From IMG/VR virus record IMGVR_UViG_2660238346_000033: a stretch of DNA of 37,514 bases; one strand, given 5' to 3'. This document shows positions 9,575 through 10,270 of the stretch, in pieces (position 1 is the stretch's first letter; each line of letters starts with the position of its first letter). The DNA comes from a virus (lineage: Duplodnaviria > Heunggongvirae > Uroviricota > Caudoviricetes). The notes under the pieces were generated by a model, which did no database searches, had not been told where the DNA came from, and saw only the letters and a list, made by a program, of their open reading frames with translations. Both the position numbers and the translations under genes were made by a program.

Positions 9575-9603
9575 TTGAATAATAAACAACAGGATTTTAT
9601 AAT
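9575..9603 (+). promoter_or_regulatory. sigma70-type promoter for the acetyltransferase cargo gene
   Basis: TTGAAT (9575-9580), 17-bp spacer, TATAAT (9598-9603), about 50 bp upstream of the AAGGAG RBS. Confidence 0.6.
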
Positions 9604-9654
9604 CTCTTAACCTTATAACATGTGTGGTCTGAAATAATAATTAAGGAGATTATC

Positions 9655-10227
9655 GTGCTGTCTTACCTAATGGCAATTCACTTTGTTTTATTTGGGAACT
9701 CTACTAATTTAAAAAACTTCTGGAAACATGAAGTAATTCGGCGGAAACGTATGGATATCTGGAGGCTTTTAAGAGAGAAAAAGCAGCGTAACAGGAATTT
9801 CCTTTTCTGGTGGCGGTTGGCTAACGAAATGTATATTAATGGTAATAAATTACATAAGAAAGCTGCTAAAAAGTTAAACAATAAAATAATTAACAATTTT
9901 GGTTGCGAGATTGGACTGGGCGCAAAAATTGGAAAAGGGCTAACAATTCCCCATCACGCTGGAATTGTTGTTCATTTTGCTGTTGATGCTGGTGAAAATC
10001 TGGTGTTACGACAGAATACTACTATTGGACAGATAGATGGTGACATACCTGGTTCAAGAGTAAAAATTGGTAGTAACGTTGATATCGGAGCTAATTGTTG
10101 CATCATTGGATTATCTCGTAAAATTGGGGATAATGTAAAAATAGGCGCAATGTCTTTTATAAATAAAGATATACCATCGAACTGCACATATATAACTAAA
10201 AAGAACGGTGTTGTTTTGTATAAATAG
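9655..10227 (+). CDS. hexapeptide-repeat acetyltransferase (CysE/serine acetyltransferase-like, left-handed beta-helix family)
   Basis: Repeated [LIV]-G-x-x-x-x hexapeptides (IGLGAKIGKGLTI, VKIGSNVDIGANCCIIG, IGDNVKIGAMSFI) and N-terminal helical region resembling CysE; very AT-rich; start ambiguous (GTG 9655 after AAGGAG, or ATG 9670). Confidence 0.6.
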   Translation: MLSYLMAIHFVLFGNSTNLKNFWKHEVIRRKRMDIWRLLREKKQRNRNFLFWWRLANEMYINGNKLHKKAAKKLNNKIINNFGCEIGLGAKIGKGLTIPHHAGIVVHFAVDAGENLVLRQNTTIGQIDGDIPGSRVKIGSNVDIGANCCIIGLSRKIGDNVKIGAMSFINKDIPSNCTYITKKNGVVLYK

Positions 10228-10236
10228 AGCACATAA

Positions 10237-10270
10237 AGCCATCGATATTTCTATCGATGGCTTTTTCTTT
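10237..10270. terminator. rho-independent terminator after the acetyltransferase gene
   Basis: AGCCATCGATA-loop-TATCGATGGCT hairpin followed by TTTTCTTTTT. Confidence 0.65.

Follow-up and report, generated by a model that had tools for sequence, protein, structure and literature searches.

An AT-rich single-gene moron in a P88-like prophage encodes a predicted left-handed beta-helix acetyltransferase, a candidate modifier of envelope glycans

The window analyzed here, i.e., the whole 37,514-nucleotide (nt) stretch of IMG/VR record IMGVR_UViG_2660238346_000033, was found to be a P2-like prophage inserted beside pgsA, with the integrase at the far end. Its gpU tail protein is 96-99% identical to those of P88, P88_4B11 and Citrobacter phiSM, all members of the genus Xuanwuvirus, and by sequence the phage belongs with P88 in this genus. 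Phages of this group have the FI-FII-E-T-U tail operon, of which gpU is the last gene, inverted and pointing at the V-W-J-I-H-tfa block. Our subject is a short acetyltransferase gene located between gpU and the tail-fiber assembly gene tfa, described in the original prediction as an AT-rich moron with a promoter and a terminator of its own. The features of the gene, followed by those of its borders, are:

9575..9603, + strand: sigma-70-type promoter-like site, with TTGAAT at 9575-9580, a 17-nt spacer and TATAAT at 9598-9603 (10 of 12 positions match)
9643-9648, + strand: Shine-Dalgarno sequence AAGGAG, 6 nt upstream of the GTG, read directly from the sequence
9655..10227, + strand: acetyltransferase coding sequence (CDS), 190 amino acids (aa), 573 nt, GTG start
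10235..10274, + strand: intrinsic-terminator-like hairpin and T-run, with a 13-bp stem at 10235-10264 and a 4-nt loop, then TTCTTTTTAT
9499..9574, + strand: left junction and upstream spacer, where the drop in GC content starts
9004..9498, + strand: gpU tail protein, left border of the slot (Pfam Phage_P2_GpU, E 3e-39)
10271..10849, - strand: tail-fiber assembly protein of the TfaQ/TfaR type, tfa (Pfam Caudo_TAP, E 1e-40)
10849..12732, - strand: tail fiber protein with a gpH-like N-terminus and a His-rich gp37-like tip (from its translation; annotated in 55989 and P1-like phages)

The acetyltransferase gene and tfa are convergent, and tfa forms the right border of the slot. A longer open reading frame from 9622 (201 aa) was dropped in favor of the start at 9655, based on the ribosome-binding site (RBS), the N-termini of homologs and the call of the NCBI annotation pipeline PGAP, by which the identical 573-nt CDS is annotated in E. 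coli 55989. The AAGGAG sequence is unchanged in 55989 and in a 70%-identical allele (L092). The GC content is 0.33-0.36 over 9550-10300, whereas the flank with the tape measure and gpU has 0.48-0.59 and the fiber flank 0.43-0.55, and a similarly low GC content relative to the neighbors was found in most homologous acetyltransferase loci. Both the coordinates of the gene and its AT-richness are as originally predicted.

The near-consensus TTGAAT-17-TATAAT promoter was also found where it had been proposed. When the 156-nt intergenic region was shuffled 5000 times with its dinucleotides preserved, 5.9% of the shuffles had an equally good match on the + strand, and the match alone is suggestive of a promoter, not decisive. 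The site is kept in the 70%-identical allele (L092/L095). The P1-like phage JL22 has unrelated DNA upstream of its copy of the gene, and a TTGACA-18-TAAAAT site of its own is located there instead. A cis-regulatory RNA in the 45-nt leader was considered and rejected, since there was no Rfam match and the leader was found to fold no better than its shuffles (z -0.23).

The strong terminator hairpin that had been predicted was confirmed. Its folding energy is -18.1 kcal/mol (z = -7.5), and none of 200 shuffles folded as well. It sits between the convergent stops of the acetyltransferase gene (10227) and tfa (10271) and folds as well on the opposite strand, while the T-run is found on the + strand only. 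The hairpin is conserved together with the gene in 55989, JL22, Ro157c2YLVW and L092/L095; the distant alleles L065 and L054 have a different GGGAGG/CCTCCC hairpin with a T-run in its place. From these sequence features we infer that the gene is expressed from the prophage; an entry for the acetyltransferase was not found in the portion searched of one O157:H7 proteome supplement.

Morons of the type defined by Hendrix are autonomous cargo genes. The gene described here shows moron anatomy, as originally proposed from its promoter, terminator and AT-richness. It comes with a promoter-like site, an RBS and a terminator of its own, its base composition is foreign, and among near-identical phages it is present in some and absent from others at the same position. 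The region from 9545 to 10274 is best explained as a single-gene moron of this P88-like (Xuanwuvirus) prophage.

In P88, P88_4B11, phiSM and the prophages of IHE3034 and U12A the slot between gpU and tfa was found to lack the acetyltransferase gene and to contain a Hin/Cin-type invertase and an alternative fiber tip with its tfa, although gpU of the phages and prophages with this cassette is 95-99% identical. In the window and in 55989 the acetyltransferase gene replaces the invertase cassette and the alternative fiber half. Homology with the sister prophages without acetyltransferase ends at about 9505, just past the gpU stop, and the segment in common with the 70%-identical allele begins at about 9545-9571. 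The P88-like invertase cassette and the C segment of P1 represent the same genomic slot, and JL22 carries its acetyltransferase gene in the middle of such an invertible C segment; the window differs in that only the acetyltransferase gene is kept. The original prediction had placed the gene where P2 carries Z/fun. It does abut the 3' end of a tail-fiber assembly gene, but its other neighbor is gpU and the sister phages carry the invertase cassette. The slot corresponds to what Wiles et al. (PMC3573123) call "moron position 2" and not to the P2 Z/fun locus as such.

A precedent in terms of anatomy is neaT, from prophage phi-b0847 of E. coli CFT073, for which virulence phenotypes were found experimentally (PMC3573123). 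Like the window gene it is a very AT-rich single-gene acyltransferase moron with its own promoter, located beside a tail-fiber assembly gene in a P2-like prophage, likewise at "moron position 2". In contrast, neaT is flanked by G and FI, the gene order there being of the P2 type, and NeaT is a membrane protein of the Acyl_transf_3 family (PF01757; PMC3573123), unrelated in sequence and fold to the protein studied here.

A search of 5426 complete E. coli genomes for the 781-bp unit gave 530 carriers, including strains of O55:H7, O157:H7 and O111:H8 as well as 55989, and 510 of the 530 carriers had at least 80% coverage at 90-99% identity. Two P1-like phage-plasmids carry the CDS, the hairpin, tfa and the fiber tip, with the gene between convergent U and tfa at the center of the invertible C segment. 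The 70%-identical allele resides in the same Xuanwuvirus slot. Here the promoter, the RBS and the first approximately 60 nt of the gene are 86-90% identical at the nucleotide level, and the last approximately 60 nt, the hairpin and tfa are 92-96% identical, whereas between these two ends of the gene the identity drops to 40-74%. In L092-L094, which carry this allele, an 87-aa tfa remnant and a gene for a 222-aa class-I methyltransferase were seen between the acetyltransferase gene and the functional tfa (5617-6605), and cargo has thus been stacked at the same hotspot.

Alleles of 50-57% identity were found at the end of an HP1/P2-like prophage beside hok and copA, beside an integrase in Salmonella, and, on plasmids of the EPEC adherence factor (EAF) type from enteropathogenic E. 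coli (EPEC) (L088-L091), directly after the bfp pilus operon. On IncFII plasmids (L104-L106) the alleles lie between ParE-toxin and ProQ/FinO-like genes near repA, and a member of the family was present on 492 PLSDB plasmids. The gene family is not confined to tail-fiber loci and is also found on plasmids and at other prophage positions. An exclusive linkage to tfa and the fiber was rejected for two reasons. A tfa of the same type, about 90% identical at the nucleotide level, was present without the acetyltransferase in about 4500 of the 5426 genomes, and alleles also occur away from fiber genes, on IncF and EAF plasmids and beside copA or integrases. The tfa genes without an acetyltransferase are tfaQ/tfaR of the prophages Qin and Rac.

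Pairwise ratios of nonsynonymous to synonymous substitution (dN/dS) among alleles were 0.04-0.17, with dS up to about 2, indicating that the acetyltransferase gene is under purifying selection. A decayed prophage at the same pgsA/tRNA-Gly-Cys-Leu site was observed in E. coli O157:H7 strain 472 (L110; NZ_CP018245.1 2540734-2560838). Its tape measure gene is frameshifted, D is truncated, and fiber and head genes have been replaced by insertion sequence (IS) elements. The acetyltransferase of this remnant, WP_000954203.1, is intact with a dN/dS of 0.06 relative to the window, which suggests that it has been retained by the host. Taken by its sequence record, the gene is functional, highly mobile, single-gene cargo.

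The protein scored 26.5 bits against Pfam Hexapep (PF00132), where the gathering cut-off is 27, and 17.7 bits against PF14602; most homologs carry a precomputed PF00132 match. The best NCBIfam matches were EpsC (6e-21), CysE (6e-17) and WcaB (2e-14), which bears out the originally proposed relation to hexapeptide-repeat and serine acetyltransferases. All NCBIfam equivalog cut-offs were missed (75 vs. 150 bits for EpsC and 53.5 vs. 196 bits for WcaB), and on these scores the protein is related to the EpsC and WcaB families yet an equivalog of neither. It also matched PHROG 2154, annotated as "unknown function" (E 2e-85).

The AlphaFold2 model, built on an alignment of 106 sequences, has a mean confidence (pLDDT) of 91.4 and consists of five N-terminal helices at residues 2-82 followed by a left-handed beta-helix (LbH), with short beta-strands across residues 84-170. 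With 31 sequences the beta-helix was modeled poorly (pLDDT approximately 50), and that model was set aside. The top 50 Foldseek matches in the PDB were all serine acetyltransferases (SATs), with TM scores of 0.56-0.71, and all are LbH enzymes; the family profile matched SAT chains at E 2.5e-24. No significant structural match was found in the viral library BFVD. HMMER alignments with SATs from gonococcus, soybean and Salmonella place H100 opposite the catalytic His158 of CysE and E85 opposite Asp143. H100 is conserved to at least 90% among 106 homologs, and the E85 position is D or E throughout the family. Further residues that do not vary in the family are E26, W52-W53-R54 and R119-Q120-N121. 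The acetyltransferase fold predicted from the sequence is thus supported by the model as an LbH fold of the CysE-like branch.

Specificity is a different matter. SATs bind serine, by its amino and carboxyl groups, through Asp92, Asp157, Arg192 and His193 (E. coli CysE numbering). In the window protein Asp157 aligns with Pro99 in a column that is variable in the family, there is a gap opposite His193, R135 is found opposite Arg192 but in a freely varying column, and the Asp-Pro motif containing Asp92 is absent upstream of the WWR helix in the aligned protein. The CysK-binding tail is also absent: the chain ends about 10 residues past the last LbH coil (...TKKNGVVLYK), whereas CysE structures extend at least 25 residues past the aligned region. 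The N-terminal domain is about 80 aa compared to about 140 aa in CysE. The CysE-like specificity implied by the original prediction was accordingly not borne out. Due to the loss of the serine-binding residues and a score far below the CysE cut-off, the RefSeq name "serine acetyltransferase" is probably a fold-level label and a misnomer as regards function. In short, the protein shares with CysE the helical N-terminal domain followed by an LbH, the His/acid dyad and the best matches among solved structures, but not the serine-binding residues, the CysK-binding C-terminus, the length of the N-terminal domain or a score anywhere near the equivalog cut-offs.

By sequence, the closest characterized E. 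coli protein is WcaB (b2058), and in its catalytic domain the window protein is nearer to this sugar acetyltransferase than to the SATs. The MG1655 protein is 35% identical over 109 aa of the catalytic domain (E 5e-15, hhalign probability 99.6), and according to MG1655 product names it acetylates an undecaprenyl-diphosphate (Und-PP)-linked colanic-acid intermediate. Both are LbH proteins of the CysE branch in which the Glu of the GxEI motif, the catalytic His and the Arg of "IR..TIG" all align. WcaB is, going by its product names, a soluble enzyme whose substrate is a lipid-linked sugar on the cytoplasmic side of the membrane, and the same would hold for the window protein. WcaB differs by being 162 aa long, with a shorter and unrelated N-terminus, and by its location in the chromosomal wca operon, whereas the window protein has an 80-aa SAT-like helical domain and is encoded by a solitary gene on mobile elements.

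The genomic context of relatives was compared at 80 loci, one locus per species. In Leminorella grimontii the gene for a homolog with 48% identity over 164 aa (E 6e-46) closes an operon with a waaG-like gene, waaP, genes for glycosyltransferases of families 4 and 8 (GT4 and GT8) and waaY, and faces waaL. In Pseudomonas abyssi the acetyltransferase gene is preceded by hldE, msbA and the gene for a small kinase, in that order, and followed by a pseudaminic-acid cluster. An Orbaceae homolog was found downstream of a GT9 heptosyltransferase gene and a Pseudomonas homolog downstream of a GT2 gene. The neighbors at the 80 loci included six kinases of the 3-deoxy-manno-octulosonate (Kdo)/WaaP type, three GT9 proteins and five NeuB proteins. 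The relatives residing in lipopolysaccharide (LPS)-core (waa) operons and other glycan clusters are 42-48% identical to the window protein.

Prophage enzymes that convert surface polysaccharides by O-acetylation are exemplified by NeuO of prophage CUS-3, which acts on the K1 capsule, and Oac of Sf6. NeuO is an LbH enzyme of the NodL/LacA/CysE group with polysialic acid as its substrate, and it is phase-variable through a heptanucleotide repeat tract at the 5' end of the gene. The window gene resembles neuO in kind, as a prophage-borne gene for a predicted LbH O-acetyltransferase. Polysialic acid is, however, absent from most strains carrying the window gene. Phase variation of the NeuO type was rejected, as Tandem Repeats Finder found no tandem repeat over 9450-10350, and on this point the NeuO-like character originally proposed was not found. 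Oac differs in being a membrane acyltransferase.

The reading we favor, and to which we give about an even chance, is that the gene encodes an O-acetyltransferase that is expressed in the lysogen and modifies an intermediate of an envelope glycan, with the LPS core as the first candidate, thereby altering the cell surface, phage adsorption and perhaps host recognition. In the lysogen, with the late tail operons on either side silent, the gene would be transcribed from a sigma-70 promoter of its own, and transcription would stop at the strong hairpin shared with the convergent tfa. The product would be a soluble, cytoplasmic and presumably trimeric LbH acetyltransferase of the SAT fold, using acetyl-CoA and the His100/Glu85 dyad to O-acetylate a hydroxyl group of an acceptor other than serine. 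This acceptor would most likely be a sugar of an envelope glycan whose assembly on the lipid carrier, on the inner side of the membrane, is still under way. A soluble enzyme has access to the LPS core, which is assembled at the cytoplasmic face, is conserved across serotypes and is a common phage receptor. These three properties make it an attractive acceptor given the range of carrier serotypes; Und-PP-linked intermediates of colanic acid, enterobacterial common antigen or the O-unit are alternatives. The outcome would be lysogenic conversion of a surface structure, with a changed adsorption of LPS-dependent phages and possibly a changed host recognition. The change in adsorption could serve superinfection exclusion or protect progeny from debris. 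Support comes from the anatomy of the gene, the fold, the retention of catalytic and loss of serine-binding residues, the selection, the mobility and the glycan-cluster context of relatives, whereas expression, use of acetyl-CoA, acceptor and phenotype are what we infer. Of the two functions originally suggested, surface-polysaccharide O-acetylation is the best supported, by WcaB and the relatives in waa clusters, while for defense there was no match in PADLOC.

Several observations weigh against this reading. The promoter match is only moderately above chance (the 5.9% of shuffles given above). Foreign AT-rich DNA is frequently silenced by H-NS, and the AT-rich island around the acetyltransferase gene may be silenced as well. 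No glycosyltransferase or flippase gene accompanies the window gene, which stands alone between gpU and tfa, and the argument from context therefore draws on relatives of 42-48% identity. These contexts are themselves mixed. A Mixta relative is found in a lacZYA-like operon with genes for a glycoside hydrolase of family 2 (GH2) and a transporter of the major facilitator superfamily (MFS), other relatives lie in a cluster with AMP-ligase and aromatic-lyase genes, and in Rahnella there are conserved GGDEF or POT neighbors; the family therefore has no single acceptor. The hosts span the serotypes O104-like 55989, O55:H7, O157:H7 and O111:H8, a range that demands a conserved acceptor but does not pinpoint it. 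The adjacent fiber module is related to Stf-Tfa of lambda and Rac, and the logic of self-exclusion is weaker if its receptor is not LPS. In the literature homologs appear only as unexplained "serine acetyltransferase" cargo, in the P1-like phage JL22 (PMC9603915) and in phiNP of C. rodentium (PMC6456863), and the assignment of function is based on sequence.

A broader version of the favored reading, which we advance tentatively and consider doubtful, is that PHROG 2154 as a whole comprises O-acetyltransferases of the LPS core or another conserved envelope glycan, spread as one-gene receptor masks on Xuanwuvirus, P1-like, HP1/P2-like, IncF and EAF elements. Such masks would block LPS-dependent phages, and perhaps the formation of mating pairs, whatever the serotype of the E. 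coli host, and the diverged center of the gene (the 40-74% identity region) would encode differing acceptor specificities.

Among the rival explanations, acetylation of a free small molecule in the manner of LacA or Maa fares best, although we regard it as rather unlikely. The enzyme would then detoxify or trap a non-metabolizable sugar or a xenobiotic and benefit any host of the element. The Mixta relative is third in an operon with a GH2 glycosidase gene and an MFS_2 sugar transporter gene, weaker matches to galactoside and maltose O-acetyltransferases were found, and a solitary gene on many plasmids and phages fits a self-sufficient function. On the other hand, the LacA and Maa models matched far more weakly than EpsC, CysE and WcaB, relatives are more common in LPS and glycan clusters than in sugar-catabolic operons, and neither a transporter nor a hydrolase is encoded beside the window gene.

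An intracellular anti-phage or anti-defense effector, whose acetylation target would be a macromolecule or metabolite of the phage or the host, is also an unlikely explanation, slightly more so. The gene is located in a variable hotspot of a P2-like phage and is mobile among competing elements, and hotspots of P2-like phages are rich in defense systems, with many genes of unknown function there being anti-phage (PMC9122126; PMC13586616). None of the PADLOC-DB families was matched at E values up to 1, however, and neither of the two hotspot papers mentions acetyltransferases; a known defense system was rejected on these grounds. Enzyme class and chromosomal relatives point to glycan chemistry instead.

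We consider it improbable that the protein is a genuine SAT, producing O-acetylserine that raises the supply of cysteine or induces the CysB regulon in the lysogen free of the feedback control of CysE. The solved structures that match best, by sequence as well as by fold, are indeed all SATs, the N-terminal helical domain is SAT-like, and the catalytic dyad is retained. Yet there was no solved structure of the WcaB/EpsC type among the PDB matches, and the fold matches are biased toward SATs. The equivalents of Asp92, Asp157 and Arg192/His193 are not kept, the CysK-binding tail is absent, the N-terminal domain is short, and the CysE models were missed by a wide margin (62.2 vs. 210.65 bits for TIGR01172 and 40.1 vs. 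397 for PRK11132). A decaying or neutral passenger without current function, as AT-richness and a solitary position typical of recent acquisition could suggest, is very improbable given a dN/dS of 0.04-0.17, catalytic residues that are nearly invariant in the 106 homologs, and a gene that is intact in 510 of 530 carriers (at least 80% coverage) and in the decayed prophage.

If the favored reading is correct, about 1 in 10 sequenced E. coli would carry an unrecognized, horizontally mobile surface modification, the carriers being O157:H7, O55:H7, O111 and O104-like strains along with hundreds of IncF-type plasmids. Phage susceptibility could be altered, which is relevant to phage therapy and typing, and recognition by antibody and complement as well as LPS-based diagnostics could change. 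The annotation is affected as well. The name "serine acetyltransferase" is found on thousands of RefSeq entries and is unsupported by the active-site residues, and it is read in the literature as that of a fitness gene of cysteine metabolism. Prophage O-acetyltransferases of surface glycans are well known, and the gene is an uncharacterized member with a probably wrong database name; it is real but fairly ordinary lysogenic-conversion cargo. Should it be silent or its substrate trivial, it is one more ordinary moron.

Some further observations were made in the adjacent fiber region. A 21-nt inverted repeat (10279-10299 and 11050-11070, 19 of 21 positions complementary) brackets tfa and the end of the fiber gene. 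By a rough estimate about 0.003 such repeats are expected by chance in 3.7 kb. The repeat nearly coincides with the segment from 10285 to about 11020 that is approximately 90% identical to tfaQ/tfaR-stf of Qin and Rac, and it could be a boundary of module exchange; it is unlike the cix, gix and hix sites. The Rfam family IS009 (RF02111) matched 10308-10500 on the - strand (161.7 bits, gathering cut-off 117), wholly inside the tfa CDS, which probably reflects a family built on tfa-like prophage sequence and not a separate RNA gene. In the fiber gene, at 11987-12235 on the - strand, two 117-nt direct repeats with 74% identity are located 132 nt apart and represent a duplicated fiber-shaft motif.

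The prophage was also found to carry other cargo. One gene, at 16274-18154 on the - strand, separates the lysis genes from tail genes R/S. Its 626-aa product combines DUF1737, SASA (sialate 9-O-acetylesterase) and DUF6645 domains and is 79% identical to NanS-p/YjhS of Shiga toxin phages. With this NanS-p-like gene inserted, the prophage holds both an O-acetylesterase and an O-acetyltransferase. A strict linkage of the two was rejected: a prophage of enterotoxigenic E. coli has an acetyltransferase allele without the esterase, the O157:H7 remnant keeps the acetyltransferase alone, and the IHE3034 prophage has neither. The other variable position of P2-like phages, beside gpA, is occupied at 26477-29587 on the - strand by genes for a PIN-domain protein, overlapping that of a protein with helix-turn-helix and Peptidase_M78 (IrrE-like) domains, and for a ParM-type actin-like segregation protein. 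ParM and partition genes were also present in the O157:H7 remnant.

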